A DNA stretch of 64,000 nt from Candidatus Latescibacterota bacterium (GCA_965116885.1 OZ220741.1:3424001-3488000), one strand, 5' to 3'; numbered from the stretch's first letter, positions 15,884 through 60,601 are shown. The notes: generated by a model from the sequence alone, not told the origin. Made by a program: numbers and translations.

Positions 15884-15907
15884 ATGAATACCCTGCTCCT
15901 TTCGCCG

Positions 15908-16051
15908 TCATGTTGCTTTTCTCGCATACACGCCGGCAGGGGATATTTCGGCCATCTCTTCCGACGAGTACACGTCGAGATGGATGTCGCAGTCTGTCGT
16001 CTTCTTGAAAGCGTAGGTTCGGCGTAGAAGTGTAAAAATAGGTTCCGGCAA
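15908..16051 (-). pseudogene. Probable N-terminal stump of an alpha/beta-hydrolase (esterase)
   Basis: RBS GGAGAGG + TTG, MPEPIFTLLRRTYAFKKTTDCDIHLDVY resembles lipase/esterase N-termini; stops after 47 codons. Confidence 0.35.
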
Positions 16052-16090
16052 AGTTATCCTCTCCAATTTCTTCTGCGTTCTTTCGCGATC

Positions 16091-18535
16091 TCACTCCGTC
16101 TTTAACGTCTCTACAGGATCGGCCTGTACCGCTTTAAGTGTATGTAAAAAAACAGTAATCAACGCAATCACCAACGCCACAAAACCTGCCAAAGCAAATG
16201 TGCCCACACCCAAATCAACTCGATACGTAAATGAAGCAAGCCACGTTTGCGCCATATAAAAGCCAATAGGCCAGGCCACAAAATTCGCAATCAAAATTAG
16301 AACAATATACTCTTTGGTCAAAAGCGTCAAAAGGTGGTATGAACTTGCGCCCAAGACCTTCCGAATACCAATTTCTTTCGTGCGACGCGCAACCGAAAAA
16401 GATACCAACCCCAGCAAACCAAATGAGGCGATGAGTACTGCAAGCATCGAAAAAACAACCACCAATTTCTGCTGCCTCACTTCGCCTTGATACCAGAGGG
16501 CTATTTCCTCATCTACAAAGGTATATTGAAACGGATGATCAGGCAAAAATGTTGCCCACGCCTCTTCGAGAAAAGCAATGGTCTCAGGCAAGTTTTCCAG
16601 GTTAACACGCACATAAAGATGCTTGAGATTCCACAGTTCGGGCACAAATATAATAGGCTCAGTTTGATCGTGTAACGAACCAAAGTGGATGTCATCAACA
16701 ACACCCACAATAGGTCCTCTTTTATTGTAAAAAGGCCATTCTACTATTTTTCCAATAGGTTCTTTCCAGTTCATTTTTTTCACAAGAGATTTGGAAACGA
16801 TAAACTCCATTTCTTTATTTTCATCCCACTGGTCAATAAACGTAGGCGGGAACGTTCGGCCTTCAAGTATCGGAATATCCAATAACCTCAAAAACCGATC
16901 GTCAATGCCCATAAACCGAAGTTGCTGATCAGGTAGCGTGGTTTCAGGAAAACGAAAAGCCTGTCGGTTGCGGGCAGCAATAGTAAACCGGGACACACTT
17001 GCATCTAACACATTGGGGTGTTCGAGAAACCGTGTCTTCACCCGATCGTTTTGAAGTTTAAGCTCACCACCAAAATTTCCCCATTGGCTTGATTTATTTG
17101 CAATATTAAAAATCGGCAAACTGATGATTCCTTCACGACGATACCCCAGGTCTTTTTCTGCTATTAATTTCATTTGATCAGCAATGACAAGGGTCAAAGA
17201 AATGAAGACGATAGATACCGTAAATTGAAAAACAACCAATGTCTGACGAAAGAAACCGCTGCTCGCAGATGTCGTTTCACTTTTCAGTACAGAAATGGGC
17301 TTAAATGTTGATAGTACAAAAGCAGGATACAACCCTGAAAGCAACCCGATGAAGACAGCAGCAGAAAAGGATATGGCCAAAAATGCTGTATCAAAAGGAA
17401 TTTCCATTTGTACCTGAAGTAAATTACTGAAAGCGCCAAACAAAAAACGAGAAAAACAAAATGCCAGGAGCAAAGCAATCGTAGAGATCAGAATCGACTC
17501 AGTAAGAAATTGAGCAACAAGATTGTTTGGGTGTGCACCAACAACCTTTCGAACCCCTATTTCTTTTGCCCGAAGTGTCGCCCGCCCTGTCGAGAGATTG
17601 ACAAAATTAAAACAGGCAATGACCAATAAAAAGCTGCTGATCAACCCCGCAAAATACAAACGATTGATGTCTCCATAATCAAAAGTCAATCCACCGCCGG
17701 GGCGACGAATGTTGTACGTTTGGGACGAATAGAGATATATTTGATTAAAAGGCTGAAGATGATATGCGTTTCTCGCAGCAACCTCTTTATCCATATACTG
17801 CGTGAAAATACGCTGAATGTTTTTTTCAAAAGCTGCAATGTCAACACCTTCACGCGCGCGCAAAAATGTTTCTATAAAACAGTACCCTCTGGTACGCCAA
17901 TTTGCCCAATGATGATGAACCCGAGCAGCAGATGACTGCGTGGCCAGGAGATCAAATTGAATCGTGCTGTTGTTGGGTTTAAAAAATACACCACAAATAC
18001 GATAATCAGCACTCAAGCCTGTTTCTTCAATTCTAAGGGTTTGACCAATCGGATCACGATCTTCAAAGAGTTTCTCCGCCAATGTTTGAGAAATCACCAA
18101 AGAACCTGGCGAACGCACCAGGGTTGCTGCATCACTCCTCGCAAAAACATGTGGAAACGTATCCAATACGTTGTCATCAGCCAGACAAAAAATCTGAGAA
18201 AGGACTTTGTCTCCCGAACTCACGAAAACCTCTCGGCGCAACAATCGGGTGACATCCAATACTTCCGGGTATTCATTCCGCAAAACGCCTGCTAATGCAC
18301 CAGAAGTACGGGTCGTGTAAAGCAGTTGATTTTCGTTGCCCACCGTTGAGCGAATTACCCGATATAAATTTTCCGTATTTGGAAATTGTGTATTAAAACT
18401 GAGTTCCCAACGAATGTACATTGCTATGAGAATGACACACGTCATACCAATTGCAAGCCCCAAAACATTAATCGCCGCATGAAATCGCTGACGCAACGAA
18501 CTGCGAATTGCAATCGTCAAATAACTCTTAAACAT
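16091..18535 (-). CDS. ABC transporter permease, MacB/FtsX family (two repeats)
   Basis: MFKSYLTIAIR, INVLGLAIG, two KEIG(V/I)RKV motifs, DPVETLKTE. Confidence 0.92.
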   Translation of the reverse strand: MFKSYLTIAIRSSLRQRFHAAINVLGLAIGMTCVILIAMYIRWELSFNTQFPNTENLYRVIRSTVGNENQLLYTTRTSGALAGVLRNEYPEVLDVTRLLRREVFVSSGDKVLSQIFCLADDNVLDTFPHVFARSDAATLVRSPGSLVISQTLAEKLFEDRDPIGQTLRIEETGLSADYRICGVFFKPNNSTIQFDLLATQSSAARVHHHWANWRTRGYCFIETFLRAREGVDIAAFEKNIQRIFTQYMDKEVAARNAYHLQPFNQIYLYSSQTYNIRRPGGGLTFDYGDINRLYFAGLISSFLLVIACFNFVNLSTGRATLRAKEIGVRKVVGAHPNNLVAQFLTESILISTIALLLAFCFSRFLFGAFSNLLQVQMEIPFDTAFLAISFSAAVFIGLLSGLYPAFVLSTFKPISVLKSETTSASSGFFRQTLVVFQFTVSIVFISLTLVIADQMKLIAEKDLGYRREGIISLPIFNIANKSSQWGNFGGELKLQNDRVKTRFLEHPNVLDASVSRFTIAARNRQAFRFPETTLPDQQLRFMGIDDRFLRLLDIPILEGRTFPPTFIDQWDENKEMEFIVSKSLVKKMNWKEPIGKIVEWPFYNKRGPIVGVVDDIHFGSLHDQTEPIIFVPELWNLKHLYVRVNLENLPETIAFLEEAWATFLPDHPFQYTFVDEEIALWYQGEVRQQKLVVVFSMLAVLIASFGLLGLVSFSVARRTKEIGIRKVLGASSYHLLTLLTKEYIVLILIANFVAWPIGFYMAQTWLASFTYRVDLGVGTFALAGFVALVIALITVFLHTLKAVQADPVETLKTE

Positions 18536-18626
18536 AAGTCTATCCCCAATAATATTAGAAATCGTTCAATGAGCTATATCTATATTTGATCATTCTATAG
18601 AATTTCTTGTTTCATGACATTCCGAG

Positions 18627-19235
18627 TTATTGAAGAAGTCCCAGATGATCCAGCTTTTGCCGAAGGTTGTCGGCTCCAGTATAGGTGTGTCCAGCTATAC
18701 CCAATCTGGTCGCCGATGCCACATGCCCGGCATTGTCGTCTATGAACAGAGTCTGATCTGGAGATGCGTCCACGGTATCTAAGGCTGCGAAGTAGATGTT
18801 GGGATCGGGTTTTGCAAATCCGACCTCTGAGGAGTTGATGATGTAGTCGAAATCCTCGGCGATGCCCAATCGCCGAAGGTCTGAGGGTAATCTCGATGTC
18901 GCATTGCTGATGAGGACTAACTTAGCCTTTTCCCGACAAGCCCGCAAAATCTCCAGGACTTCCGTATCGACTTCCCCTGGCGATGCGGACCAGAGTTCGA
19001 CCGCGCGCTCTGCGTTGGTGTTAGGGAAGTCCTTGCTGAGCAGGTCCGCAATTCTCCGGCGCCACTCACCGTCAGAGATTCGTCCTGTGATTACCAGGGG
19101 GAGCAAGTCATCTGAGAATGCAATCCCGAAGATGGCGCCTTCGGGAAGTCCGGTTGCGCGCTCAGCCTTCCGATGTATTTCAGGGGACCAGATACGAATT
19201 ACCCCATCGAGGTCTGTCAAGATTACGTTCGTCAT
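18627..19235 (-). CDS. HAD family hydrolase
   Basis: DLDGV, SN, KPDP, FIDD motifs; start placed at ATG 19235. Confidence 0.9.
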   Translation of the reverse strand: MTNVILTDLDGVIRIWSPEIHRKAERATGLPEGAIFGIAFSDDLLPLVITGRISDGEWRRRIADLLSKDFPNTNAERAVELWSASPGEVDTEVLEILRACREKAKLVLISNATSRLPSDLRRLGIAEDFDYIINSSEVGFAKPDPNIYFAALDTVDASPDQTLFIDDNAGHVASATRLGIAGHTYTGADNLRQKLDHLGLLQ

Positions 19236-19236
19236 T

Positions 19237-20298
19237 TCAATCAGGTTTGACCGCATTCTCCAAAATGGTAAATTTGCGCCGATCAGAGTCGATTTCTGCT
19301 TGAATCCCATACGGAAGAACGAACATCGGATCTGTGTGCCCGAAATCCATCTGCGTAATTATGGGGAGCGAAGTCAATCCTTCCTCGTCAGCGACTATCT
19401 GAAGTATGGCGTCGTCATAAGCGTGAAACGAATCAGGCGACAACTCGTGGCCACCTGGTCTTCCAAAGAGAATCCCACTCAAAGATGGAAGAATATCCAT
19501 CGCAGCAAGAGACCGAAAAAATCGGGTTACCGTACTTGGCGGCGGTGTTTCTTCAGACGTTTCGATAAAGAGTATCGCGCCTTCCCACACTTCCTTGTTA
19601 GGCCAAACGTCTGTACTTCTTATCCAGTCGAGAACTTCGAGGCAACCACCTATGAGGTGTCCTTCCGTTTGCCCTTCTCCCTGGAGATACTGCCAACCCG
19701 CAGAGCCTTGAAGGGTCCTCTTTCTTTTTTGATTTGCAGGATTTGCCCACTCAAGACGTTCGACGGTCCAGCCATCTCGATTCTCCGGTATTTCACCAAT
19801 ATTTCCAGAATCAAATAAGGTCCGTCTAACGGAGTTCACCATGTAGGGAAACAACCCACCGTTCTCGGCAAATCCTGCCATAATTGCTGGACCATAAAAG
19901 GAGACAATGCCCGCCTTTAGGCACGCAAAGTGGGAAACGGTCGTATCGGAATATCCCACGAAGGGCTTCGGATTCTTCCCGATAAGATCAAGGTCTAAGT
20001 GACGAAGAATTCTAATCGAGTCATCGCCGCCAATAGTCGATATAATTCCTTTGATTTCTGAGTTTGAAAAGGCTTCCATCAAGTCATCCGCACGCGCTTT
20101 TGGATTCTCAGAGAGCCATTTTGGCTCTTTGAGTGTATGAGGCATCTCAATCACGACCAGGCCAAATGCTTCTTCCAGTTGCTTTTTTCCAGCTTCATAT
20201 CGATGTGGAATTAGCCCCGGTCCACCCCATGACAGAGATACGGTGGCTACCTTATCTCCCTCTTGAAGCTTTGGTGGTTTAGTAAGCGATGGTTTCAT
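19237..20298 (-). CDS. S66 peptidase (LD-carboxypeptidase/MccF-like)
   Basis: IGGDDS, GYSD, ILFIETSE, DFGHTDP; ATG overlaps the upstream stop. Confidence 0.9.
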   Translation of the reverse strand: MKPSLTKPPKLQEGDKVATVSLSWGGPGLIPHRYEAGKKQLEEAFGLVVIEMPHTLKEPKWLSENPKARADDLMEAFSNSEIKGIISTIGGDDSIRILRHLDLDLIGKNPKPFVGYSDTTVSHFACLKAGIVSFYGPAIMAGFAENGGLFPYMVNSVRRTLFDSGNIGEIPENRDGWTVERLEWANPANQKRKRTLQGSAGWQYLQGEGQTEGHLIGGCLEVLDWIRSTDVWPNKEVWEGAILFIETSEETPPPSTVTRFFRSLAAMDILPSLSGILFGRPGGHELSPDSFHAYDDAILQIVADEEGLTSLPIITQMDFGHTDPMFVLPYGIQAEIDSDRRKFTILENAVKPD

Positions 20299-21032
20299 TT
20301 TAATCTGTCCGGTTTCACCCAGACTGAAACATGGCTGTGACTTACGCCAGTAAATGGCTCTTGATCCCAACCTGCCCAGCGTTCCACTAATGTCATTCCA
20401 GCCAGCTGAGCCATCAAATCGAGCTCCGCTGGCCAGACGTATCTAAATGGTGTAGAAAACAGCTCTATATTGCCATCGACGATTCGGGCGTGATGAGACG
20501 TTAGACCCTGCGAGACAACATCATACTCATCAACACCCCAATGCTTTTCGCTGAGGTCGTAAGCGAGTAACGTCTCACTTTTCGCCAGGCGCTGAAGCTG
20601 AGGAACCATAACTTCGATAACGAAATGGCCTCCAGGCTTGAGATGCGCTGCCGCATTACGAAAGCAAGCTACTTGAGACGTCTGTGTCGTGAGGTTCATG
20701 ATTGTGTTGAACACGAGGTATACCAAAGAGAACGAGCCATCAACAATAGTTGTCGAAAAATCGCCAATCGTTACATCAACTTCTTCGCCATCTTGCTTCA
20801 ACTTGAGCCTCTCGATCATTGCCTTGGACATGTCCACACCATGCACAGGGACTCCTCGCCGGGCAAGTGGCAATGCGATTCGCCCTGTGCCAATGCCGAA
20901 CTCAAGGGCACTTCCATCACCCGAAAGCTTGAAAAGAAAATTGACGACAGGATCAACTACTGCAGGATCGAACATCTCGGCATCATCATCGTACGTCGCC
21001 GCTCTTCGTTCATTAAAGTAGCCGTCATCCAT
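20295..21032 (-). CDS. Class I SAM-dependent methyltransferase
   Basis: ALEFGIGTGR, VFNTIMNL, WPAELDLMA. Confidence 0.9.
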   Translation of the reverse strand: MDDGYFNERRAATYDDDAEMFDPAVVDPVVNFLFKLSGDGSALEFGIGTGRIALPLARRGVPVHGVDMSKAMIERLKLKQDGEEVDVTIGDFSTTIVDGSFSLVYLVFNTIMNLTTQTSQVACFRNAAAHLKPGGHFVIEVMVPQLQRLAKSETLLAYDLSEKHWGVDEYDVVSQGLTSHHARIVDGNIELFSTPFRYVWPAELDLMAQLAGMTLVERWAGWDQEPFTGVSHSHVSVWVKPDRLK

Positions 21033-21070
21033 AATCTACCTCTACGAGAATTATCCAAAAAAATATTGCT

Positions 21071-21094
21071 TGTAGCTCCACCAAAACGGGTCAA
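21071..21094 (+). mobile_element. Possible orphan IS3-like terminal inverted repeat (copy A)
   Basis: TGTAGCTCCACCAAAACGGGTCAA shares CAAAACGGGTCAA with 54945-54957; starts with TG; no transposase nearby. Confidence 0.3.
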
Positions 21095-21106
21095 GCCCAC
21101 TTGACT

Positions 21107-21144
21107 AAACGAAAACCCCGTGCATGGAAAATACACACGGGGCT
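21107..21144 (-). terminator. Intrinsic terminator after the NDT-like gene
   Basis: CCCCGTG/CACGGGG stem followed by TTTTCGTTT on the minus strand. Confidence 0.6.
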
Positions 21145-21174
21145 GAAAACACGAATCCATCCTCAGGCTTCTAT

Positions 21175-21792
21175 TCATCTTACCCACTCCTCAATGAACC
21201 CGACATACTCAGGCACAGGCATCATTTGTAGATCTTTATCCCTAAAGCCCTCGGCCTCTCTCTTTTGATAAAAGTCCGCCATAAATTCGTTGAATTGGTC
21301 CCAAATTACGGTCCCGCTGGGCAGACCTTCAATGCCTACCTCAACAAACCAGTTCCTCACTTGACGGATGACTTCCTCAGGCTCATTCTGGTGGCGCTTA
21401 ATGTCGGAGTTCGACAGATCAGACAATGCCTTTTGGTAATCGTACTGTTCAGTTTCCAGGATCAAACACCGCTTTTGACTCAGTGGGCCGTTAGAGAAGA
21501 CCCTGCAGCCGATGTCGAGACCCAGTTCGAAGGGCATGTTCATCCTGTGAATTTCGCCCTCGAATGACGCTCGCATCCTCGAAAGATCATGCACACTGTA
21601 TTTTGACTCACGTATCAATTCACAGATTCGATTGATCCTCGCAGATCCAGAGTCAAAAGTCTCCGAAGCAATCCTCACCGTCATACCTGCTCGAACAACA
21701 CTGAATAGCAGAGGTCTCAAGAGAGGAATATACTCGTCGTCGAAGGGGCAGTTGATAAAGACGTTGGTATGAAATTCTCCTCCGCTGTTCAC
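21175..21792 (-). CDS. Conserved hypothetical protein, NDT/TIR-like Rossmannoid fold
   Basis: NVFINCPFD, SVHDLS, NMPFELG motifs; GTG overlaps the upstream stop (GTGA). Confidence 0.65.
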   Translation of the reverse strand: MNSGGEFHTNVFINCPFDDEYIPLLRPLLFSVVRAGMTVRIASETFDSGSARINRICELIRESKYSVHDLSRMRASFEGEIHRMNMPFELGLDIGCRVFSNGPLSQKRCLILETEQYDYQKALSDLSNSDIKRHQNEPEEVIRQVRNWFVEVGIEGLPSGTVIWDQFNEFMADFYQKREAEGFRDKDLQMMPVPEYVGFIEEWVR

Positions 21793-22004
21793 TTAGCCCG
21801 TTTCCATTTTTGTATGGATCCATCTCGTTCGTGGATGACGACATCCCTACCCTTCGAAATCTTGCTTGCGCTTCTTTCGGCATCGGACTTAGTGCTGTAG
21901 ATTTTTGAAGCTTTGGAATTCCCTTCCTTCTTGACTGCCCAACCATCTTTTCTTGAGATGACATGCACTCTTTCGCCATTGGTTGCTTGTGAATTTCTTG
22001 CCAT
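21789..22004 (-). CDS. DUF2188 family protein
   Basis: HVISRKDGWAVKKEG...TKSDA...VVIHERDGSIQ; RBS AAAGGA. Confidence 0.85.
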   Translation of the reverse strand: MARNSQATNGERVHVISRKDGWAVKKEGNSKASKIYSTKSDAERSASKISKGRDVVIHERDGSIQKWKRAK

Positions 22005-22125
22005 GGCAGGTCCTTTCTCATCTTCGCAGGTGCCTATCTAAGTCTCCTGACAATATATCAAAATGTGTAGATAAACAAAAGCGATTAGCCTCATTTTTTT
22101 ATTTTTTTACACACTATGCTTGCTG

Positions 22126-22260
22126 TCACTTATCCCTATTCTTGGTAGCAACGAAGATCATCTCTTTTTCGTGTTCGGAATTCAGGGTCGCGTCTGTCCA
22201 ATCCCCTTTGACATCGACATCTTGAAAGCCTGCCAATTCCAGCATCCACATCAGTTCATT
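22126..22260 (-). pseudogene. C-terminal remnant of a methyltransferase
   Basis: NELMWMLELAGFQDVDVKGDWTDATLNSEHEKEMIFVATKNRDK* is homologous to the C-terminus of 34930-35733; no start. Confidence 0.8.
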
Positions 22261-22272
22261 CGCTCGGAAGGC

Positions 22273-23058
22273 TCATTCCGGCTTTCGCGCTGATACGAAA
22301 AAGTCGGATGGTAGTGTTCCCTGTCCGGAGCCACGGACCTCCTCATCCGTCCGCTCCAGCATCCGATCCACGATCAGACCCGAGGCGAAAACCGCGTTCA
22401 AGATGTCCGCCAGGGTGTGCGGAAACTCGACGGCGACCAGGTCTGGGTTTCCATACTGGTAGGGACCGGAACTCTCATTGCATTGAGAATACTCCGGTGT
22501 ACGGTCGCCATACACCCGATTTACCGTCCAGGTCCTACCGTCCTCGCTGTTGAGGGTCCAGGCTGAAATCGGATGCATTTCCCGCAAGACGAGTCGTCCG
22601 CCCGGCCGGAGTACGCGACACCAGTTCCGGCACGCCGTCGGTATGTCTTCATACATCCAGAAGTTGTAGTCCGCATAGACCAGGTCGAATCGATTGTCCT
22701 CGATCTTCGACAAACGTTGGGAGTCATCGACGAAGAAGTTGACATCAAGGTCTACCTTGAGAGCGTTCTCTTTTGCCAACTCAATCGCTGCCGCACTGAA
22801 GTCACATCCCCAAACGTTGGCGCCGAGGATGCTCAGAGAAAAGACCTGACTGGCGTCTCCAGCACAGCTCAACACGAGCACGTCGAGGCCACGCACATCG
22901 CCGAGCATGTCCAGCTCGTCCTGATCGAAGTCGTGCTCGCGGTTTCGGTACTGTGCGTAGTATCGCGGTTTGTTGGTGCTGGCTTCGAACCAGCCCCGAT
23001 GGCACGCTTCCCAGGCGGCGCGGTTCATCTCCAGATGTTCTCGTTTGGATCGCGTCAT
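22273..23058 (-). CDS. Class I SAM-dependent methyltransferase
   Basis: Variant motif I VLVLSCAGD, GCDFS, VLRPGG, EMHP. Confidence 0.85.
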   Translation of the reverse strand: MTRSKREHLEMNRAAWEACHRGWFEASTNKPRYYAQYRNREHDFDQDELDMLGDVRGLDVLVLSCAGDASQVFSLSILGANVWGCDFSAAAIELAKENALKVDLDVNFFVDDSQRLSKIEDNRFDLVYADYNFWMYEDIPTACRNWCRVLRPGGRLVLREMHPISAWTLNSEDGRTWTVNRVYGDRTPEYSQCNESSGPYQYGNPDLVAVEFPHTLADILNAVFASGLIVDRMLERTDEEVRGSGQGTLPSDFFVSARKPE

Positions 23059-23203
23059 AGATGATGTTCTCCAGCAAACTGGTTTCTAACGATCTACCCA
23101 GTCAAGAATGGCTTGCCTGAGAGGAACAGCGCGAACATCGATTGGTTGTATCTATCGAATCGTTTGAAGCTCAGACTCGGATCGTCTTCCAACTTCGCCC
23201 AAG

Positions 23204-23299
23204 CCGGTAAGCGAAATTATTTAGTCACCATCCCATAGCAAAGTATGTTGCAGCCAGGCAATCAAATTTGCCGCAATAATCCATCTTAGAAAAGTCATC
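23204..23299 (-). pseudogene. Degenerate fragment of a MacB/FtsX permease
   Basis: With frameshifts and a stop reads FLRWIIAANLIAW(P)ATYFAMGW*LNNFAYR, matching FLKWVLLANVIAYPVSYQLVSYWLAEFAYR in 29839-32244. Confidence 0.6.
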
Positions 23300-23332
23300 G
23301 CATGGCTCTCCATTTATGTGTCGTGCGATTCT

Positions 23333-24148
23333 CTATCCGTCGCCGAATGTGCCAATTGCGATTTCGTAATCGTGCCTGTCGGCGAACCCCACCTTTTCTG
23401 CCACCCTGATTGACGGTATGTTGCTTGCCCAACAGTCCCAGTAGGGATTTATTCCAGAAGCGAGGGCGTACCTGACAAACTCTCCAGCCACCGCAGTGGC
23501 AATGCCCCTTCTCTCGTATGCTTCAATCGTCTCGATGCCTATGCCGCACTTGCCTTCGCTCACGTATTCTGCTGTACACCAACAGACAACTGAAGTTCCA
23601 TCGAGCATCGCAAAGCCGAATCCCTGGTCGAGAAATATTTCAAGGGATGGCCAGCCTCCCAGGATCTCATCTTTGACCGAGCCAATGTGTACAAAGTCAC
23701 TTTGGAGCAATTGGGTGTCGATCTGCCTGAGCTTCAGCGGGGGCGATGGGACTTCAATTCTCGATGAGCTGTCCCGAACAGAGCAGTAAATCCGTCTTTC
23801 CACGTTCTTGTGCGAGAGCGGGCCGAAAATCTCCTCCAGCCGGAGGCTCCATGCATCTGGTGAATAGTAGAGCTTGAAGAACCCGAGTTCTCTTGACTGA
23901 CCCTCTGGCTGGATTTCAGTCGAGAAGATCTCTCGCAGCCCATTGTTGGCTTCAACGCCTTCAAAGTCTCCTACGAGGTAGATACACCGGCCTTCCCAGG
24001 CTAATACGGTCCGCGGGGTAGCTGGATCGTCTGCCCAGACTCTGGCAGGGGTTTTGCCATCGATAATGCTATCTACAACGAGGCGGAGGTTGGGCGTATT
24101 AAAATGAGGCGGAATTGACGAGGTCTCTTTACTGTGAAGTAGGTGCAT
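23333..24148 (-). CDS. GNAT acetyltransferase (GNAT_acetyltran-like)
   Basis: GIGIETIEAYERRGIA, WDCWASNIPSIRVAEKVGF. Confidence 0.88.
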   Translation of the reverse strand: MHLLHSKETSSIPPHFNTPNLRLVVDSIIDGKTPARVWADDPATPRTVLAWEGRCIYLVGDFEGVEANNGLREIFSTEIQPEGQSRELGFFKLYYSPDAWSLRLEEIFGPLSHKNVERRIYCSVRDSSSRIEVPSPPLKLRQIDTQLLQSDFVHIGSVKDEILGGWPSLEIFLDQGFGFAMLDGTSVVCWCTAEYVSEGKCGIGIETIEAYERRGIATAVAGEFVRYALASGINPYWDCWASNIPSIRVAEKVGFADRHDYEIAIGTFGDG

Positions 24149-24189
24149 GGTGTCTCACTCTGTCTGCTTTTGTTAGCCGAATGCGGGTT

Positions 24190-24996
24190 CTAATCAGCCG
24201 GTTTCGTGGCTATGAAAACCATGTCCTTATGCTCAGCGTTCAGGGGCTCGTCCGAGAAGTTACCCTTCACCTCCACGTCGGCAAATCCCGCCAACTGTAG
24301 CATCCAGAGTACCTCATTGCGATGATACCAGCGCGTCTGACCCACATGCACCTCTTCCTCGGTAATCTGATTACCGTCATGAATCTCGTATCGGCGTTCC
24401 TGCATCTGGATCTGTTCAACTGGATCCTCTCCCGTGTCTCGTATATATACCAACAATCGTCGGCCATCTGGAAGCACCTTGTTTGATCGCTATGTCCATT
24501 CTCCCGGATAGGTCTTCGCTTCTTCTTTGCTGCCGTAGTAGTTCCGGTTTCCCGGAGAACAGGCGAATACGAGTTGTCCTTTCGGTTTTAGGTGGGTGAA
24601 ACAACGTCGCAATGTCTCCAATGCCTCGGCGCGATCCATGACACACTCGAAGCTCCCGCAGGGGATGTAAATGGTCCTGTACCTATGCGGCACGTCGAAC
24701 GCCTGCATAGATTGCCCATAAAGGACTGGTTTGACTCCGACGCGCTCTGCATCCCGGCGGCACACTGTTAGTTGATCTGCTGATATGTCTATTCCCTCAA
24801 CGTCAAGGCCCTCCTGCAAATAGGCGATCAACAAGCGACCCGCACCACACCCCAATTCGAGTGCTTTGTCCGAATTTTTCACGATTATGGAACGATAAAA
24901 TTCCTGATCTCTACGGGGGTCGGTAACCGATATTGTGGCCCAATGGACGGACGCCAGGCCGGTGTATAGATCGCGTTCGTCGTATCGCTGTTGCAT
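24190..24996 (-). pseudogene. Methyltransferase with premature amber stop (paralog of 34930-35733)
   Basis: Near-identical to 34930-35733; TAG at 24490-24492 where the paralog has TTG; frame continues to 24190. Confidence 0.88.
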
Positions 24997-25030
24997 TGTG
25001 TTGTCCTCGAGAAAATGGTCAGTCTGGTCC

Positions 25031-25942
25031 TTATAGCTGCTTTGTCATAACGACATACTCGCGGTTGACACGCCATCCATTGACTTCGTAGAACTTTCGG
25101 GGAACAATGGGAGCAAACATGGATGTCGCTCCTCTTTGCTTGAGAACTCTCGCGGCTTCCCTCAGAAGGCTGGAGCCAATCCCCTGGCGACGATAGTCGG
25201 GAAGCAAAGCGATGTAGCTTATACCTGCGACTCCGCTTGGGCTAATCAACGCATCAATACAACCGATCAACTCGCCATCTACACGCACCAGTAATCGAAC
25301 CCGCTTCGGATTATAATGGCGGTATTGATCGATCCAGTCGGGCCAGACCCACACTTTCTTCCCAAGTCGCTTGACAAACGCCATCATATCTTCCAGCTCT
25401 TCAATGCGGTATTCCAAGATCACATGCTTCAAGGACCGGGGTTGGGGTGCGGCCTCAATGTCCTGAAAATCGGCCTCAACATCGGTTATGATCCTGCCCC
25501 TCTCGAAACCGTGATGCCCAAGAAAGCGAATGGCCTCTGCATGGCAGACGTCGATTCCCTTTACCGTCCCAACCCAGGCATGCGATGTTGCAACATTTAG
25601 ATGCCTGCCCCCCTTCGATTGGACGGATTCAATCATCTCGGATAACAGAGCAGTCCCAATGCCCTGTCGTCGGTATTTATCTCCCACGTAGATCGCGCGA
25701 AGTGCTTCCCCTAATACGCTGGCAAAACCGATGATTTTTCTATCGAGTACTGCAATTTTTGAAAATCCCTTTTCTTTTTTTGGCAGAACAAAGTCCCTGA
25801 ATGGCTCCAACCAGCTTTCGAGTGGGGCAAAGGGCACTGCCTTGTTCCAGCCAGCCTGAATTGTCTCGAGATCATCGGGAACAGGTGTTCTAAAAATTAC
25901 ATCAACAGGCATAACAGGGTGCTTCTGTTTACTCAATTCCAT
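25031..25942 (-). CDS. Tandem GNAT acetyltransferase
   Basis: Two YRRQGIG motif A copies. Confidence 0.88.
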   Translation of the reverse strand: MELSKQKHPVMPVDVIFRTPVPDDLETIQAGWNKAVPFAPLESWLEPFRDFVLPKKEKGFSKIAVLDRKIIGFASVLGEALRAIYVGDKYRRQGIGTALLSEMIESVQSKGGRHLNVATSHAWVGTVKGIDVCHAEAIRFLGHHGFERGRIITDVEADFQDIEAAPQPRSLKHVILEYRIEELEDMMAFVKRLGKKVWVWPDWIDQYRHYNPKRVRLLVRVDGELIGCIDALISPSGVAGISYIALLPDYRRQGIGSSLLREAARVLKQRGATSMFAPIVPRKFYEVNGWRVNREYVVMTKQL

Positions 25943-26050
25943 GAGACGCCCTTATACTGAGCAGATTGCGCGCATAGCGTTTCCTTTTCTTTTTCTTGAT
26001 CCAAAAGTGCATCCGTTCTTGGGTATAAGGTGAGAAAGAGTCTAAGCCGA

Positions 26051-26216
26051 AAAGGAGGTGAGGCACTTGTGTAAAATGATGACGGTTCCTCTATGAGGAA
26101 GAGGCATGCGTATGCCACAAACGAGAATCGAACAGAAAAAACAGGTTGCGCTATTCGCTTTGAATGGCGTTTTTTTTTCGTCGGCCACTGCACCAATGGA
26201 TGCTGTGGCCTTTTTT
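26051..26216 (+). promoter_or_regulatory. Structured leader with uORFs and two intrinsic terminator-like hairpins
   Basis: RBS AAAGGAGGTGA + 9-codon uORF 26067-26096; hairpin 26149-26169 + T9; hairpin 26183-26210 + T6. Confidence 0.5.
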
Positions 26217-26230
26217 ATTTGGGGGTGCCT

Positions 26231-27193: not shown

Positions 27194-27319
27194 CCATAGG
27201 AGAAATCTCAGCGAGCCCCATGAAGAAATTTGGATGACTTGTGTATCGGTTTCACACACGGGACATCGATTTGATGGCGGCATGGTATTCTAATAGCAGT
27301 CATCGTCTGCACAATATAC

Positions 27320-48919: not shown

Positions 48920-48961
48920 GATAGGGATCCCCGATTTAGTTCAAACATCGTGCAGACTGTC

Positions 48962-49663
48962 TCAACTGCCGACTACCTTATTTTTTCTAAGAATCGGAAA
49001 TTCGGCACCTTTCATTCCGGTGTCTGTCAAATATGTAAGGTTGCAATGATGATACGCACAGATATAGCTTCTACGTAATTTATCAGATGAATTGGAGCCG
49101 CTTCTATGTAGAACATGCGAATGAAAAATAGCGATTTCACCTGCGTGCATTTCGATGGGGACCTGATTTTTATCATCCACATCTTGCGCGAACCGACCTG
49201 CGTAGAATGTTTCCGTTTCTCTCAAGAATACATGATCAAGTCGTCCCCATTTGTGTGAGCCTGGTATCACCCATAAACATCCATTGCGGATAGTAACAAC
49301 ATCAAGGGCAACCCAACAAGTGATGTAATGTTCCGGCTCTGTCAGACCGTACTGAGCATCTTGATGCCAATAAAATTCTTTGCCTTGAAACGGAGGTTTA
49401 TGAGCTATTAAATTCCAATGAAGATCGGCATTGGGCCCAACCAGTTTCTTACAAGCTTCGACAAAGAGCGGTTGTTTTACGAACTCTGCAAATAGGCCAC
49501 TCTTCAAATGAGGATTGCGTTGAAACCATTTGGGATTGTCTGCGTTATATTTTTCACATTCCTTGGTCAGCTTGTCGAGCCACTCACCTGAGACTTTTTG
49601 TCCAACAATGAAAAACCCTTTCTCATCAAAGTCACGAAGATTACGGCTGGTTATGATATCCAT
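48962..49663 (-). CDS. Phytanoyl-CoA dioxygenase family protein
   Basis: WHQD, NGCLWVIPGSH, HRSGSN. Confidence 0.9.
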   Translation of the reverse strand: MDIITSRNLRDFDEKGFFIVGQKVSGEWLDKLTKECEKYNADNPKWFQRNPHLKSGLFAEFVKQPLFVEACKKLVGPNADLHWNLIAHKPPFQGKEFYWHQDAQYGLTEPEHYITCWVALDVVTIRNGCLWVIPGSHKWGRLDHVFLRETETFYAGRFAQDVDDKNQVPIEMHAGEIAIFHSHVLHRSGSNSSDKLRRSYICAYHHCNLTYLTDTGMKGAEFPILRKNKVVGS

Positions 49664-51667: not shown

Positions 51668-51736
51668 AAATCCTCCATAAAATCACACATCAAGTAATTA
51701 GTATAAGGTTGAAAATAAACACTTTACAAGAAATAC

Positions 51737-51768
51737 TGCTTGATGCTAAATTGAAAACCAGCTATATT
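51737..51768 (+). promoter_or_regulatory. Sigma70 promoter, repeat copy 1 (upstream of TA module)
   Basis: TTGATG-17nt-TATATT; these 32 bp are identical to 55098-55129. Confidence 0.65.
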
Positions 51769-51862
51769 TTTTATAATCATTAGAGATGGATTGCAAGTAT
51801 CTTGTTTCTGGATTGGCTTAAAAGTTCTCAACTATTTTAATGGGAGGGAGGTGCGGGACACG

Positions 51863-52099
51863 ATGAAACAGACCATGGATGCCGTATATGAAAATGGAGT
51901 CTTCAAACCTTTGAATCCTCCTAAACTGTCTGAGGGTCAGCACGTCCGTATTGAAATAGAAATGTCTTTTGAAGAAAATTTCGATGATCTTCTTGAACTG
52001 GCTGCAAAGGTCTATGAGGGACTCTCCGATGACGATATCGACAGCATTGAGAAGATTGCACATGACCGTCGGGACTTTTTGGGATATAGAACCCAATAA
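51863..52099 (+). CDS. Antitoxin, AF2212-like (DUF104)
   Basis: MKQTMDAVYENGVFKPL...LSEGQHVRI; RBS GGAGG. Confidence 0.85.
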   Translation: MKQTMDAVYENGVFKPLNPPKLSEGQHVRIEIEMSFEENFDDLLELAAKVYEGLSDDDIDSIEKIAHDRRDFLGYRTQ

Positions 52100-52295
52100 T
52101 GGCGTTACCCAAAGTGATATTGGATACGGACATTCTCAGTGCTATTATGCGCCGACAATCCGCGGTCATTCCCACTGCTCGGGCCTATCTCAGAGAGCAC
52201 CATCAATAATGGTTCACAGACTTGGGATCGTTATCAACAATGAGAGACATTTTCAACGGATTGCCGATCTTCATGTAGAGAACTGGATAAAATAA
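52099..52295 (+). pseudogene. vapC: VapC/PIN toxin with internal deletion
   Basis: MALPKVILDTDILSAIMR...HHQ*, then in another frame VHRLGIVINNERHFQRIADLHVENWIK*; central part missing; ATG overlaps the antitoxin stop. Confidence 0.8.
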
Positions 52296-54957: not shown

Positions 54958-55097
54958 ATCCAGGCTGTTACACAATGGCATGCTTAGGGTAGGGGGAGGC
55001 TTGGCAGGACGTCAAGCTTGGGGAAGCGCTTTTAAATAATAAAAATGACAGCTATTGTCAGTATGAACATAAAAAATAAATATCTTACAAGGAGCAT

Positions 55098-55129
55098 TGC
55101 TTGATGCTAAATTGAAAACCAGCTATATT
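55098..55129 (+). promoter_or_regulatory. Sigma70 promoter, repeat copy 2 (upstream of LamG gene)
   Basis: Identical to 51737-51768; TGACA-N5-TGTCA palindrome at 55046-55060. Confidence 0.65.
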
Positions 55130-55211: not shown

Positions 55212-56810
55212 ATGGATCGCGACTTAATCGCCCACTGGCCGTTCCGAGAAAACCTGAAAGACCATTCCGAAAGTGGTCTGCCCATCCAAAATCACGGTGT
55301 TGAAATCGGGGAATCAGGTGGACGAAGAAGCGCCCAATTCAACGGGGCGGAAACCTTTCTGGAAGTTCCCTGCAACCTGTCTATAGGGACAGGCGATTTT
55401 TCATGCGCGGGATGGATCTATACGGAAGAAACCGAAGTGGTCGGCGACATCCTCAGCCAATTCGATCCGGAAACCCGCCATGGATGGCAGGTCTCGGTCC
55501 TCACCAATACCGGAATGACTTCCACCGCTCAATCGAATTGCCGCAATCTCCACTTCGGCATCGACAATGGGCATCTCGGGTCCTGGACGGATTGTGGGCG
55601 TCCCGGTCAGGCGGTCAAAATATCTGCACTTTCAACACTGGGCGGACACCTGTACGCCGGGACCTTCGAGAACGGCAAAGAAGAGGTCGGTCACCTGTGG
55701 CGCTACGAAGGGGAAAACCGCTGGACCGACCTGGGCAATCCAGTGGGGTGCAACTCCGTCAACGCCGTCGTCGAATTTCAAGGCGCGCTCTACTGTGCTC
55801 TTGGCCGGTATAATTCCAGCGGATCCGCCATGGGCGATCCCCTGAATACCACACCGGGCGGCCAGGTTTATCGGGTCGATGCCGACGGTCAATGGACCTT
55901 CTGCGGGCATCCAGGCATCGAAGACGCCACACCCGAAGAAACACCCACCACGGGACATAACACGGGCAAAGCCGATAACGCCACCGCCCTCACAGTTTAT
56001 CAGGGGCGGCTCTACGCCACCAGCCTCTACCGCGAGGGTGCCTTTGTCTATGATGGCGGCACCACCTGGACGCCCATAGGTCCAGACGTGCGGCTGATGA
56101 GTTTCACCGTCTATCGGGACCGGCTCTACACCCTCGTCAACGGCGGCCCGGTTCTTCGCTACGAAGGCAATGCTGAATGGACCGACTGCGGTTGTCCCGA
56201 AACCTCCACCCAGACCTACTCGGCGGTTACTTTCAAGGGGCAACTCTATGTCGGCACCTGGCCTCAGGGCGAAGTCTATCGATATGACGGCAACAAGACC
56301 TGGACCTGTTTGGGTCGGGCTGGGTACGAACGCGAAATCATGGCCATGGGACTTTACAACGGCAAGGTCTATATCGGCTCGCTCCCAATGGCCAATGTCT
56401 GGCGGATGGACGGCAATCAATTCACATTTCTGGAGTCTCTGGACCGCACGTCCGCGCCCCTGCGGCGGGTCTGGTCCATGGCCGTTTATCAGGGTCGCCT
56501 CTATGCCGGCACCCTGCCGTCCGGACATGTCTATTCGGTCGAAGCCGGAAAAGTCGCCACCTGGGACCACGCATTTCCCAAAGGATGGCGACACGTAGCC
56601 GCTGTCAAGCAGGGCGGCGTTCTGACCCTGTACGTCGATGGAACCCCTGTCGCTACAACAGACAGCTTCAATCCAAAACGCTACGATCTCAATCCCAATT
56701 GTCCCCTCTTAATCGGCTTTGGTGCCCACGACTATTTCAAAGGCGCCCTGCGAGACATTCGTATCTATCGCCGGGGCCTCACACAACGGGAAATCCAGCG
56801 CCTTCAGTGA
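55212..56810 (+). CDS. LamG-like jellyroll protein with inserted beta-propeller repeats
   Basis: LIAHWPF and FSCAGWI at the N-terminus; WRHVAAV, LYVDG, FKGALRDIRIY at the C-terminus; central repeats of (Y/F)xG(R/Q)LYxG. Confidence 0.75.
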   Translation: MDRDLIAHWPFRENLKDHSESGLPIQNHGVEIGESGGRRSAQFNGAETFLEVPCNLSIGTGDFSCAGWIYTEETEVVGDILSQFDPETRHGWQVSVLTNTGMTSTAQSNCRNLHFGIDNGHLGSWTDCGRPGQAVKISALSTLGGHLYAGTFENGKEEVGHLWRYEGENRWTDLGNPVGCNSVNAVVEFQGALYCALGRYNSSGSAMGDPLNTTPGGQVYRVDADGQWTFCGHPGIEDATPEETPTTGHNTGKADNATALTVYQGRLYATSLYREGAFVYDGGTTWTPIGPDVRLMSFTVYRDRLYTLVNGGPVLRYEGNAEWTDCGCPETSTQTYSAVTFKGQLYVGTWPQGEVYRYDGNKTWTCLGRAGYEREIMAMGLYNGKVYIGSLPMANVWRMDGNQFTFLESLDRTSAPLRRVWSMAVYQGRLYAGTLPSGHVYSVEAGKVATWDHAFPKGWRHVAAVKQGGVLTLYVDGTPVATTDSFNPKRYDLNPNCPLLIGFGAHDYFKGALRDIRIYRRGLTQREIQRLQ

Positions 56811-57834: not shown

Positions 57835-59037
57835 TCAGGCTTTTGATGTTTGTTGGGCTTTACACGCTTGTTTCCAGACATGGTGTTCTGCCATCATCTT
57901 TTCAACTTTTTCAGGGGCGGTCGTACGCAGGTCGCGTTGTTCGTCGGGATCGGTGCTCAGATCGAACAGGCCATCTGGTTTGCCGTCTGTGGCGTGGAGT
58001 TTTAGATTGCCCTCACGGACCGCGTCCTCTGTTCTATACGTCCAGTGCAAGGTGCGATCCAGGGGTTGCTCTTTGCCTTCGAAGAGTGACCACACGTTTT
58101 GGGCGTCAATGATGCGGTCGTTGGGTACAGTTGCACCGGCGAGAGCAGCGAATGTGGCGTAGAGATCGTAGTGTACCCAGGGGGTATGGATTTTTGTATT
58201 TGGAGCGATTTTTCCCGGCCAGACCGCGTTGCAGATGACCCTTAGTGAACGTTCCCAGAGAGTTCGGCCATAACCATTGGTCCGGCTGCCTCCCTGGTCG
58301 CTCAGGAATACGATGAGCGTGTTTTCCGCAATACCGGCATGGAGTACTGCATCCAGCACGCGCCCCACGCACAGGTCCAGGTATTCGACCATATACTGGT
58401 AGTTTACCATTGGGTCATCGCTGTGATAGTATCCGGGTGGGGCCTGATAGGGGCCGTGTGGGGCATAAAAGGCGAGATTCAGGTAGAAGGGCTTGGCCTT
58501 TTGGGATTGGCGGTTGATAAATTTGATGGCTTCATCCGTAAACAGGGTGTCGAAGTAACCCTCGTCCGCTATGGGTTCCAGGCCGCGAAAAAAGTGGCTT
58601 TTCATGTCGCGGTTGTACAGGTGGGTGTAGTAGTCGGCATGGCCTGCGTTGCTGCCGTAAAATTGATGAAAGCCGTGGTGTAACGGATTAAATTTTGCGG
58701 CATATCCCAGGTTCCATTTTCCAAACAGCCCTGTTGTGTATCCGGCATTTCGCAAAAGTCTGGCTATAGAGACTTCCCGGAGTGAGAGTCCGGATTCCGG
58801 ATCGTCTGGGCGTGTCTGTGAGTTGATGCCAACCCGATACGGATGCCTGCCCGTGTTCCAGGCACAACGCGCGGGTGAACACAGCGGGGTTGCGATCAGG
58901 CAGTTGTCGAATACAACGCCCTCGCTCGCCATTGTGTTCAGTCTGGGAGTTTCGAATATCCCTTCGCCATAATAATCAACTGCTTCGCAACCGAGGTTGT
59001 CGGCGACCATGAAGATGATATTGGGCTTGTTTTTCAT
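57835..59037 (-). CDS. Sulfatase (Cys-type)
   Basis: PNIIFMVADNLG, CSPAR, GKWNLG, SDQG. Confidence 0.9.
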   Translation of the reverse strand: MKNKPNIIFMVADNLGCEAVDYYGEGIFETPRLNTMASEGVVFDNCLIATPLCSPARCAWNTGRHPYRVGINSQTRPDDPESGLSLREVSIARLLRNAGYTTGLFGKWNLGYAAKFNPLHHGFHQFYGSNAGHADYYTHLYNRDMKSHFFRGLEPIADEGYFDTLFTDEAIKFINRQSQKAKPFYLNLAFYAPHGPYQAPPGYYHSDDPMVNYQYMVEYLDLCVGRVLDAVLHAGIAENTLIVFLSDQGGSRTNGYGRTLWERSLRVICNAVWPGKIAPNTKIHTPWVHYDLYATFAALAGATVPNDRIIDAQNVWSLFEGKEQPLDRTLHWTYRTEDAVREGNLKLHATDGKPDGLFDLSTDPDEQRDLRTTAPEKVEKMMAEHHVWKQACKAQQTSKA

Positions 59038-59097
59038 TGGTATTTCCTTAATTGCTTGAAAAATATAAATTTATGGTTATGGAGATCAGAGACAATA

Positions 59098-60519
59098 TCA
59101 GTTCTGGGGCTCGGGATGGCTCGCATTGGCCAGTTCGCGCAGTACATCGACCGCGAGGAGGACATCTTTCCTTCTACAGTCGAACTGACCGACCTGGAAG
59201 CGAATGACGAACTGTCCTTCATGGATCGTCTGCGTCAGGTAGATTCGGCCGTCATCATTGACCGCGCGGAGCAGGCGTTCGGTGGCGTCGTTGGCATTCT
59301 CACTGTTGGGGGCGTACTGGAACGTGAAGAGCGAAAGGTGGCAGTCCGTTGTCAGGCGAAAGCCGTCCAGAGATGCGATCGCGGCAGCGGCCTCTTCAGC
59401 CCAGGCAATATGGTTTCGGATGCGCTGTCGGAGGTCTTTGAGGCCGTGGGCGCGGAGCAGGAACCAGAGCTTTAAGGCTCGGAATCGACGTCCCAGGGGG
59501 ATCGTCCACTCGCTGTAATTGGTGATCTCGGTTTGACCGAGGGTCTGGAGGTAATCCGGACGGATGCCGAGGGTGCGAACCTGTGGTTCCGGGTCCGCGA
59601 GAAACTGGATTGAGCAGTCGAACTGCGCACCGAGCCACTTGTGGGGGTTGAAGGCGATGCTGTCGGCTTCCTCGACACCCGCCCACAACTCCCGTAGCTC
59701 GGGACAGATCATCGCGGAACCGGCCCACGCGGCGTCGATGTGGACGTAGAGATCATGCTCTCGTGCCACTTCGATGGTCTGGCGCACATGGTCGGACGCG
59801 CCAATTGATGTGCCTCCAACACAGAGGACGACACCGGCCGGGAGAAAACCCGCGGCGCGATCTGCGTTGATTGCCCGACGGAGTGCCTCCGGGTCGAGTG
59901 CCCAGGAACCATCGGTCGGAACTTTGACCAGATTTCGTTGGCCGATACCGGCGATGCGAATCGCCTTGTCAACCGACGAGTGGGTCTCCGGTGATGCGTA
60001 GATCCGGAGTTGTTTCTCTCCCGCTATTCCAGAGTCGATTCCTCGCCAGCCGAGTGTGCGCTCGCGCATCGTCAGTACGGCGCAGACATTTGCCGACGTT
60101 CCCGCATCCTGGATAACCCCCTGGAACCCTTCTGGTAGCCCGAGTGCCTGACGCATCCAGTCGGTCATTCGAGTTTCAATCTCCGTAGCTGCGGGTGAGG
60201 TCTGCCAGAGCATGCACTGGGCCGCCATGACCGCCGTCAGATTCTCGGCGATCATCGAAACCGGCGCAGCATTGGCGCTGAAGTACGCAAAAAAGCGCCG
60301 GTGTTGCCAGTGCGTCATGCCGTCCGGCACAATGCGCTCGAAGTCGGCAAAGATCGTTTCCATGCCTGCTGGCTCTTCCGGTGGCGATAGAGGCAGCATC
60401 GCAGCGATCTCGCCTGGTTCGGTCTGCGCTCGTACGGGCCGCTCTTCGAGCGTGGTCAGGTATTCGGCGCCCCACTGTGCTGCTCGTTCAGCCCATTGAT
60501 AGTAGTCTTCTCGTTTCAA
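59098..60519 (-). CDS. PLP-dependent aromatic-L-amino-acid decarboxylase family
   Basis: GMTHWQH, SPAATE, HIDAAWAG, FNPHKW, RRFRALKLW. Confidence 0.92.
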   Translation of the reverse strand: MKREDYYQWAERAAQWGAEYLTTLEERPVRAQTEPGEIAAMLPLSPPEEPAGMETIFADFERIVPDGMTHWQHRRFFAYFSANAAPVSMIAENLTAVMAAQCMLWQTSPAATEIETRMTDWMRQALGLPEGFQGVIQDAGTSANVCAVLTMRERTLGWRGIDSGIAGEKQLRIYASPETHSSVDKAIRIAGIGQRNLVKVPTDGSWALDPEALRRAINADRAAGFLPAGVVLCVGGTSIGASDHVRQTIEVAREHDLYVHIDAAWAGSAMICPELRELWAGVEEADSIAFNPHKWLGAQFDCSIQFLADPEPQVRTLGIRPDYLQTLGQTEITNYSEWTIPLGRRFRALKLWFLLRAHGLKDLRQRIRNHIAWAEEAAAAIASLDGFRLTTDCHLSLFTFQYAPNSENANDATERLLRAVNDDGRIYLTQTIHEGQFVIRFQVGQFDCRRKDVLLAVDVLRELANASHPEPQN

Positions 60520-60601
60520 TGCATTGCGTCCAGGTTTTTAGAAATTGAGTTCTTCAAAGGTAGTTGTGGCGTCAGCATTTTGTTGTCCTTCAATAAATCG
60601 C

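Follow-up and report, generated by a model that had tools for sequence, protein, structure and literature searches.

How does a long array of small genes, nearly all read in one direction, come to carry between its genes short stretches that translate into the ends of other genes? The question is posed by a 64,000-nucleotide (nt) stretch of a Candidatus Latescibacterota genome (GCA_965116885.1, OZ220741.1:3424001-3488000; G000:C1:3424001-3488000, hereafter the window), which belongs to a single-contig assembly of 5.56 Mb with 51% guanine plus cytosine (GC) and in which the long open reading frames (ORFs) between 14.9 and 63.7 kb lie nearly all on the minus strand. Between conserved flanks it holds a hypervariable array (15884-57834; minus strand, as are all features below unless stated otherwise), recognized by Pfam assignment and congener comparison, of about 40 mostly minus-strand genes for small enzymes and transporters. 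An initial annotation had proposed that the spacers are stumps of lost genes, and that genes are added and removed as units consisting of the tail of an old neighbor, a ribosome-binding site and a gene, joined just after stop codons by a shuffling mechanism that leaves no transposase or intact att site. Comparison with related genomes shows that many of the spacers are scars of deletions that took most or all of a gene, and the region probably records gene-by-gene loss by ordinary deletion rather than the action of a new shuffling machine.

According to Pfam, the array encodes about ten class-I S-adenosylmethionine (SAM) methyltransferases, six GNAT acetyltransferases and three MacB/FtsX permeases of 800 amino acids (aa), together with MFS, aldo-keto reductase (AKR), HAD, NUDIX, PhyH, GFA, LD-carboxypeptidase and sulfatase genes, separated by spacers of 12 to 770 nt, many of which measure 12-60 nt (15 of the 38 listed do not exceed 60 nt). 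All 18 same-genus genomes of a first draw matched window 20001-40000 in pieces, and the syntenic stretch was compared for 12 congeners. In these the flanks remain collinear, with identities of roughly 90-97% (from window position 1 to about 13300-15939 on one side and from about 57835 to 64000 on the other), and the interior is a mosaic of gene-sized modules at 86-98% identity that are present or absent, some of them duplicated or reordered, with array lengths ranging from 7.4 kb (G008) to 42.6 kb (G015). Module identity, which never exceeds 98.3%, is similar to that of the flanks, and no module is near-identical; a recent traffic of cassettes is therefore not indicated. Inverted matches are absent from the array (0 of 217), and all 21 repeat pairs reported in the stretches compared are direct; five of these lie in the arrays proper (window and relatives together), and several of the others are internal repeats of flank genes.

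The decisive evidence on the stumps comes from the orthologous loci of congeners, in which intact ORFs covering the same sequence were sought with tblastn and ORF context, Pfam being applied to the parent ORFs. Spacers were found to be homologous to an intact gene at the orthologous place for the esterase, methyltransferase, APH, two GNAT, VOC, MbnB-like (head and tail), DUF2441 and PhyH genes. For example, the methyltransferase tail claimed at 22126-22260 is the C-terminal end of a 272-277-aa SAM methyltransferase of G015, G009, G017 and G003, and it also matches the tail of a paralogue in its own genome (E 1e-14); the stump, of 44-47 codons (22129-22260), starts at a junction 10-12 nt past the stop of the upstream methyltransferase (22273-23058). 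The claimed VOC tail (36823-36936) corresponds to the final 37 aa of a 123-aa Glyoxalase gene (parent Pfam E 1.4e-15) that is intact in 8 of the 12 relatives' arrays, and this 37-codon fragment (36826-36936) on its own matches the last 30 positions of the Glyoxalase family above the family cut-off (E 9e-5, 23.3 bits). Its junction is not a clean join, as 25-28 nt of filler DNA (36938-36965) stand in for 387 nt and give the gene at 36938-37753 a new C-terminus and stop. The GNAT tail predicted at 33371-33490 was borne out as the end of a 320-aa GNAT gene of G009 (100% identity over 35 aa, with Pfam support), left by a clean 887-nt deletion with AAC microhomology at joint 33480/33479; the stump comprises 35 codons (33374-33479) here and in G015, and 13 codons in G003 and G017, so that the tail lengths are nested.

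Heads of genes were recovered as well. The esterase-like head noted at 15908-16051 is the N-terminus of a 296-317-aa BD-FAE/Abhydrolase_3 gene present in six relatives (parent Pfam E 4e-36), of which about 44 codons of alpha/beta-hydrolase sequence remain (15911-16054) after an 801-nt deletion (joint 15940/15939) whose end falls exactly after the TGA of the lost gene. The open frame at 45902-45958, previously left unassigned, is the 18-codon tail (45905-45958) of a 337-aa MbnB/TglH/ChrH-like gene of G003, G014 and G006, as indicated by ORF context and Pfam on the parent; a 30-codon head of the same gene (47362-47451) maps with it to one ORF in G003 and G014, and head and tail now stand 1.4 kb apart with the interior exchanged for two genes (45961-47324). 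The permease head suggested at 38803-38892 is a probable case: about 24 codons (38806-38913) of MacB/FtsX-type sequence have 13 of 24 residues identical (54%, E 1e-3) to residues 1-24 of the gene at 29839-32244, but no intact parent was found in 20 congeners. At 60538-60600 the place was right and the translated frame was not that of the gene concerned, the spacer being the scar (60520-60601) of a 325-aa PhyH dioxygenase gene reduced to its leader, five head codons and two tail codons by a 953-nt deletion (joint 60563/60562); match tables put this gene between the same two neighbors in 10 relatives, the sequence having been inspected in G015 only. Similarly, 48297-48365 does hold a deletion junction but no gene stump: in this spacer (48289-48367) a 674-nt deletion with its joint at 48308/48307 removed an entire AAA_33 kinase-like gene.

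Other proposed remnants found no such support. All 12 claimed stretches translate on the minus strand as given, five of them being confirmed as stumps, one probable, one rightly placed in the wrong frame, one a junction only and four unsupported. The supposed permease fragment (23204-23299) contains an internal stop, has no protein match and is conserved in G003 as a spacer; the first half of the RimJ-like tail (32257-32298) is native 3' flank that is also present at the end of a paralogous epimerase elsewhere in the genome; and a genus-wide search for parents of 23206-23332 and 32245-32330 returned none. At 35768-35812 and 39420-39464 relatives show short ORFs only, and the latter stretch is the leader of the GFA gene. 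The genome by itself would have given thin support to the stumps: against its own ORFs, 3 of 105 sense-frame peptides scored E<0.01, whereas none of 112 antisense peptides and 7 of 1166 shuffled ones did so, and the result was strong only for the methyltransferase tail and borderline for the permease head. Among spacer peptides of at least 20 aa, Pfam recognized 1 of 73 in the sense frames (the VOC tail) and 1 of 76 in the antisense frames, the latter belonging to a real plus-strand gene of the AF2212-like family.

Five further remnants or lesions had been missed, namely an APH tail, a DUF2441 tail, an eight-codon GNAT tail, an internal deletion in an MFS gene and a nonsense codon in a methyltransferase. 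The APH-family phosphotransferase stump retains 36 codons (23097-23205) of a 338-aa parent intact in G003 (Pfam APH E 1.7e-7), following a 1075-nt deletion (joint 23206/23205), and the DUF2441 stump retains 24 codons (47388-47461) of a 168-213-aa parent, following a 448-nt deletion (joint 47462/47461). The MFS gene (45961-46713) has been shortened by an internal 460-nt deletion at 46541/46540 and encodes 250 aa, whereas of the nine relatives with this gene eight encode 412 aa and one encodes 474 aa; the remaining array genes are mostly full length. The last two lesions belong to a direct duplication whose copies are 92-93% identical, and which provides a before-and-after state within the window. 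Copy A (23314-25034; aligned parts 25034-24186 and 23360-23314) consists of a methyltransferase pseudogene with an in-frame TAG (24490-24492) followed by an intact 271-aa GNAT gene (23333-24148), and copy B (34879-35771) consists of an intact 267-aa methyltransferase from whose neighborhood the GNAT gene has been deleted. Relative to copy A, copy B has lost 825 nt at a CGCA common to both sides, 4-8 nt past the methyltransferase stop, and only the last eight GNAT codons persist (about 34902-34925). Read-through or recoding of stop codons, another way in which a tail might follow a gene, was considered because 6 of the 12 claimed tails continue the reading frame of the upstream gene. It was rejected on the grounds that each of the three stop codons terminates genes in this region, that the verified tails derive from other genes, and that a Leu codon of copy B stands opposite the in-frame TAG of copy A.

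The description of the array as deletion-sculpted is thus supported, since at 10 junctions a longer, intact state exists, either in a congener or in the duplicate within the window. The shortened state and its remnant are carried by the window at these junctions except for GFA, where relatives carry them, the gene being intact only here among 21 genomes of the genus and its last 33 nt being kept in G015 and G003. On the other hand, the idea that a tail is brought in with the downstream gene does not hold: in congeners the parent genes occupy the same relative position, and the tails are therefore remnants that stayed where they were. A module that appears in a new context brings with it 0-32 nt upstream of the start codon, mostly 20 nt or less.

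Nor does the anatomy of the junctions suit a rule of joining just after stop codons. For the eight verified tails the distance from the joint to the upstream stop is about 1, 8, 10-12, within +/-8, 26, 110 and 127 nt, with one joint lying inside the upstream gene's own end, and four of the eight tails start no more than 12 nt from the upstream stop. The 3' edge of the NUDIX module is staggered between genomes (45259, 45285, 45297 and 45311). Microhomology at nine clean junctions amounts to 3, 2, 1, 0, 0, 0, 0, 7 and 4 nt, and chance alone, calculated here for equal base use, would give about 0.67 nt on average and at least 4 nt in about 1.6% of joints; two of nine joints with at least 4 nt represent a modest excess in a small sample in which relatives act as diverged stand-ins for the ancestor. 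Inspection by eye of the 64 printed boundaries revealed no shared motif.

Breakpoints are nonetheless far from evenly spread with respect to genes. The ends of homology in the array form 127 clusters. Intergenic positions hold 64 of these, where length alone predicts 12.7; a further 20 fall no more than 30 nt from an ORF end (7.3 predicted) and 43 deep within genes (107 predicted). Spacers and ORF edges combined account for 84 clusters as against 20 expected; among clusters seen at least three times, 49 of 51 are intergenic or at ORF edges. This concentration is the signature of selection for intact neighbors acting on untargeted breaks, for which a targeting enzyme is not required, although taken alone it is no proof against a targeted process.

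Taken together, these observations make it likely that the locus is a flexible island of accessory genes, in which illegitimate deletion and occasional direct duplication act together with selection in favor of intact neighboring genes. Under such a scheme, deletions would arise from illegitimate recombination with blunt ends or a few bases of microhomology, sometimes with filler DNA, and occasional direct duplications and translocations would alter gene order. Only variants in which the neighboring genes and their start regions remain intact would persist, and this filter would confine breakpoints to spacers and ORF edges, keep the array tight and leave mostly short tails before the next gene. 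Repeated trimming would then shorten the remnants, without the need for a dedicated recombinase or site. The nested GNAT tails would fit such a stepwise reduction of remnants to what the next gene needs for its expression.

Several observations weigh against this reading or limit its reach. Some joints do fall at a stop codon, either to the exact base or no more than 1 nt away, including the esterase deletion, a MacB module that begins 1 nt past the HAD stop, the 3' edge of a sulfatase module at 57835 and both ends of the A/B duplication, leaving room for a weak mechanistic bias towards stop codons. Short tails are over-represented, less than 20% of the gene being retained in 16 of 22 partial tails versus 12 of 23 heads, in a count that takes this genome's genes in relatives and carries no correction for shared ancestry or detection limits. 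That tails persist as carriers of the next gene's start signals would account for their retention, but scans for promoters and terminators do not rise above shuffled sequence: the promoter-like counts of 16 and 24 compare with 20.3 and 18.9 in shuffles, and the terminator-like counts of 21 and 22 with 19.0 and 20.6, so that both are uninformative. The microhomology sample is small, and its 'ancestral' sequences are those of relatives 5-8% diverged. GC content differs between modules from 42 to 56%, pointing to older foreign origins. Finally, most shared modules are collinear with this genome (for example 12 of 13 in G003, 15 of 17 in G009 and 18 of 23 in G015, down to 3 of 8 on contig G011a), but relative to it they form one to six increasing runs, a lower bound on the number of steps, with up to six in G015, G006, G013 and contig G011a. 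Duplication and loss or translocation must therefore have taken place to some extent, and because few duplicates exist to explain the differences in order, modules must at times have been translocated or imported by an unseen route.

If import rather than loss dominated, most differences would be gains of single genes acquired horizontally and inserted by illegitimate recombination, in the manner proposed for hotspots of Alteromonas, with deletion in a minor role. A stretch of about 5.1 kb with lower GC (27211-32319) occurs here but not in G015, G003 and others, and a MacB module (16062-18625) occurs only here and in G013, as such a history would predict; yet wherever polarity can be read from the remnant of a missing gene, at 10 junctions, it is always loss, G004 and G014 keep 18 nt of the MacB head beside the epimerase and have thus also lost that module, and the lack of near-identical modules between species applies here as well. 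A predominance of gains is consequently considered rather improbable. It is highly unlikely that an integrase-free, dedicated cassette mechanism moves one-gene units joined at or just after stops, or that an integron-like system with an enzyme and site of unknown type does so. The content of the array is admittedly integron-like (GNAT, VOC, NUDIX, methyltransferase and aminoglycoside-modifying-like enzymes and an antitoxin-like gene), orientation is strictly preserved, module edges lie about 20 nt or less from ORF ends with several joints exactly at stops, and a plus-strand Laminin_G_3 gene (55220-56798) is found in four contexts with the same edges. Against this stand the staggered edges of one and the same module, the absence of a boundary motif on visual inspection, stumps that were left in place and not imported, clean junctions that resemble illegitimate joins, and the results of searches for recombination machinery. 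With the integron-integrase model TIGR02249, the best match in the whole genome reached 88.2 bits versus a cut-off of 265 bits and lies at 1.06 Mb, 2.4 Mb away from the window, with nothing near 3.44-3.48 Mb. The core motif of attC sites is RYYYAAC ... GTTRRRY; a scan limited to such cores, 35-130 nt apart on both strands, found no pair in the 41,952-nt array, whereas the genome averages 2.4 per 42 kb. Of the 71 clusters of extra array ORFs in relatives, 61 were scanned (six others had been scanned earlier and four straddle locus ends) and contain no integrase or recombinase, their only mobile genes being two insertion sequence (IS) copies in G015; the other extra ORFs encode more GNATs, methyltransferases, APH, an aminoglycoside-2''-adenylyltransferase-like protein, a sulfotransferase and the like. 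The two IS copies, an IS1-like element (L012:14215-15054) and an IS4/5-like element with DUF4096 (L013:4441-5311), interrupt orthologues of the genes at 36938-37753 and 43265-45244 and occur in G015 only.

A different history would have the array grow by site-specific island integration at a tRNA gene, later lose its integrases and decay, the stumps being secondary. The statement that no transposase or att site is left was correct for this window, in which there is no integrase, no attC core pair and no tRNA gene called by ARAGORN, and in whose spacers no Rfam family reaches its gathering score; it had, however, overlooked a degenerate tRNA-like element (37796-37898) with a long variable arm and an encoded CCA, inside a 166-nt block (37788-37953). 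This element scores 34.6 bits (E 2.5e-5) against the Rfam model for selenocysteine tRNA (tRNA-Sec; gathering score 47), the true tRNA-Sec of the genome being located at G000:C1:607506-607599, and may represent either the remains of a former tRNA integration site or an unusual tRNA that still functions. It is kept in all 12 relatives' arrays at 90-99% conservation, with two copies in G006 and in G011b (14 copies aligned), and homology between contexts ends about 10 nt or less from its CCA end, all of which, along with the heterogeneous GC of the modules, would suit an integration site. Nevertheless, the ARAGORN program does not call it, its anticodon stem is broken by tandem mismatches next to an 8-nt anticodon loop, no integrase is found in any array, the second copies keep the 5' part and not the 3' part that integrases duplicate, and variation occurs at single-gene grain along the whole array and not in blocks beside the element. 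Growth by integration at a tRNA gene is thus regarded as unlikely.

It could also be asked whether the junctions are assembly chimeras of coexisting strains. Parts of window 33000-39500 were detected in 23 sequencing runs from 12 studies, mostly labeled as sponge, coral reef or marine metagenomes, and most of it in two runs, one of which may be the source sample. When contigs of four runs, from four studies, were placed on window 32500-49500, one from X18 spanned junctions 47461/2 and 48307/8 with 0 differences, and contigs of X19 and X2, from other studies, spanned 38804 and the region of the MacB head and GFA gene; bridging contigs were listed for some of the junctions, and a junction for which none was listed is uninformative either way. 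Alternative joints occur in the same runs, such as a GFA-less form (38939>39403) in X18 and X19 with the same breakpoint region as in G015 and G003, a form lacking GNAT B, one in which NUDIX adjoins the methyltransferase at 47488, and loose ends at 36937 that continue into the intact VOC gene. Hence the array is polymorphic in natural samples and alternative forms coexist, which makes a mixed assembly conceivable. Chimerism is nevertheless extremely unlikely, given that the genome is one 5.56-Mb contig, that contigs from X18, X19 and X2 bridge several junctions, and that several stumps are common to independently assembled congeners.

The preferred reading, that of an island pruned by illegitimate deletion, can be set beside several known systems. 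Integron arrays are long, co-oriented, promoter-poor series of single genes with few genes on the opposite strand and with content that varies among relatives. The present array resembles them and clusters of attC sites in its co-orientation, single-gene units, functional content and variability between relatives, but differs in having no IntI and no attC core pairs, and in that many of its spacers, at 12-60 nt, are too short for attC. In the orphan toxin-immunity arrays downstream of contact-dependent inhibition (CDI) and Rhs loci, each unit is made up of a gene and, ahead of it, the truncated remainder of a displaced upstream gene; there, however, the stump is a toxin C-terminus produced by homologous displacement at a conserved motif, whereas here unrelated enzyme families and deletions in place are involved. 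Decaying pseudogenes and the concept of deletional bias are also familiar from Rickettsia. Gene remnants in spacers are well known from reductive genomes such as that of Buchnera (PMC3164680). As in the spacers of such genomes, recognizable remains of genes kept by relatives are found here and dead DNA is deleted stepwise, although the reductive cases concern genome-wide erosion in host-restricted bacteria with small populations and the present one a single local hotspot in a 5.6-Mb genome.

Tandem duplication with random loss, a model of gene-order change in mitochondria, shares with the array a change of order without inversion, direct duplicates and remnants between retained genes; few duplicates are present here, and the step count is only a lower bound. 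Its application to a bacterial array was not found in a single literature search, whose listed papers all concerned mitochondrial genomes. The closest likeness is to the additive flexible genomic islands of Alteromonas, described as gene-cassette hotspots formed by illegitimate recombination (PMC4898812). Both have a fixed place between conserved flanks, differing sets of small cassettes, accessory functions and fast turnover. The Alteromonas islands are mostly located at tRNA or tmRNA genes or at an integron and share near-identical cassettes across species (PMC4898812), whereas in the present array neither a functional tRNA gene nor an integrase or integron was found, a degenerate tRNA-like element apart, modules are 86-98% identical, and single-gene grain, strict co-orientation and visible remnants prevail. 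These features point to loss more than gain.

Additional features of the locus were recorded. The left flank carries sulfatase and fucosidase genes and genes for planctomycete-type PSD, PSCyt and DUF1552 proteins, and because these domains are planctomycete-specific, the organism and its genus would be of Planctomycetes-Verrucomicrobia-Chlamydiae (PVC) type. At the other border, the sulfatase gene (57835-59037) starts about 15 codons later than in G004, G014 and G006, because the upstream sequence has been exchanged up to the present start codon; a new start was generated or uncovered by the junction. When one set of relatives is compared throughout, identity is 86-90% for the HAD gene (18626-19237) and jumps to 97-98% for the LD-carboxypeptidase gene (19237-20299) exactly at the gene boundary, which suggests either that different old copies have been retained or that one gene has been replaced by recombination. 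The supposed 770-nt spacer contains the plus-strand AF2212-like, antitoxin-type gene (51791-52099; Pfam E 1e-13), overlapped downstream by a 108-aa ORF that has no Pfam match; toxin-antitoxin pairs are common in large cassette arrays, and these two genes (51791-52295, plus strand) may constitute such a pair inside the array. A 57-nt direct repeat with 88% identity (51712-51768 and 55073-55129) sits just upstream of two plus-strand genes, AF2212-like (51791) and Laminin_G_3 (55212), has several plus-strand promoter-like matches and may be a common promoter or leader. A strong terminator-like hairpin (21114-21144; 12 pairs followed by a T-rich run) is found within the 142-nt spacer upstream of the methyltransferase at 20295-21032 and is among the few signs that a transcript ends within the array.

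Elsewhere in the genome, about 120-160 kb past the window end (G000:C1:3610000-3646000), there is a second long run of minus-strand small genes that includes distant paralogues of the HAD, methyltransferase, AKR, sulfatase and MacB genes of the array and an apparent 3'-end fragment of an epimerase gene (3625838-3625893), and this neighborhood suggests that the genome has more than one such array. A more speculative possibility, which we hold to be doubtful, is that sponge-associated PVC-type bacteria keep an integron-like reservoir of small detoxifying and modifying enzymes without integrase or site, in which an 'accordion' of duplication and loss reorders and prunes single genes and never inverts them, the retained tails serving as expression signals of the next gene; if true, this accordion would be a distinct, self-organizing route to cassette-like arrays.

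In conclusion, the initial observation of gene stumps is largely right and its family calls were good, whereas a special mechanism of stop-codon joining is not supported. The array clearly adds a new case to a type of locus that is already known. It offers an unusually clear natural record of single-gene loss, in which breakpoints can be read to the base and direction can be told from the remnants. Translating its spacers recovers genes of the wider array, and short ORFs in such gaps should not be annotated as new small proteins. The locus also shows that tight, co-oriented, cassette-like arrays with integron-like content can exist without integron machinery, a finding that bears on the annotation and interpretation of such arrays in poorly studied phyla.

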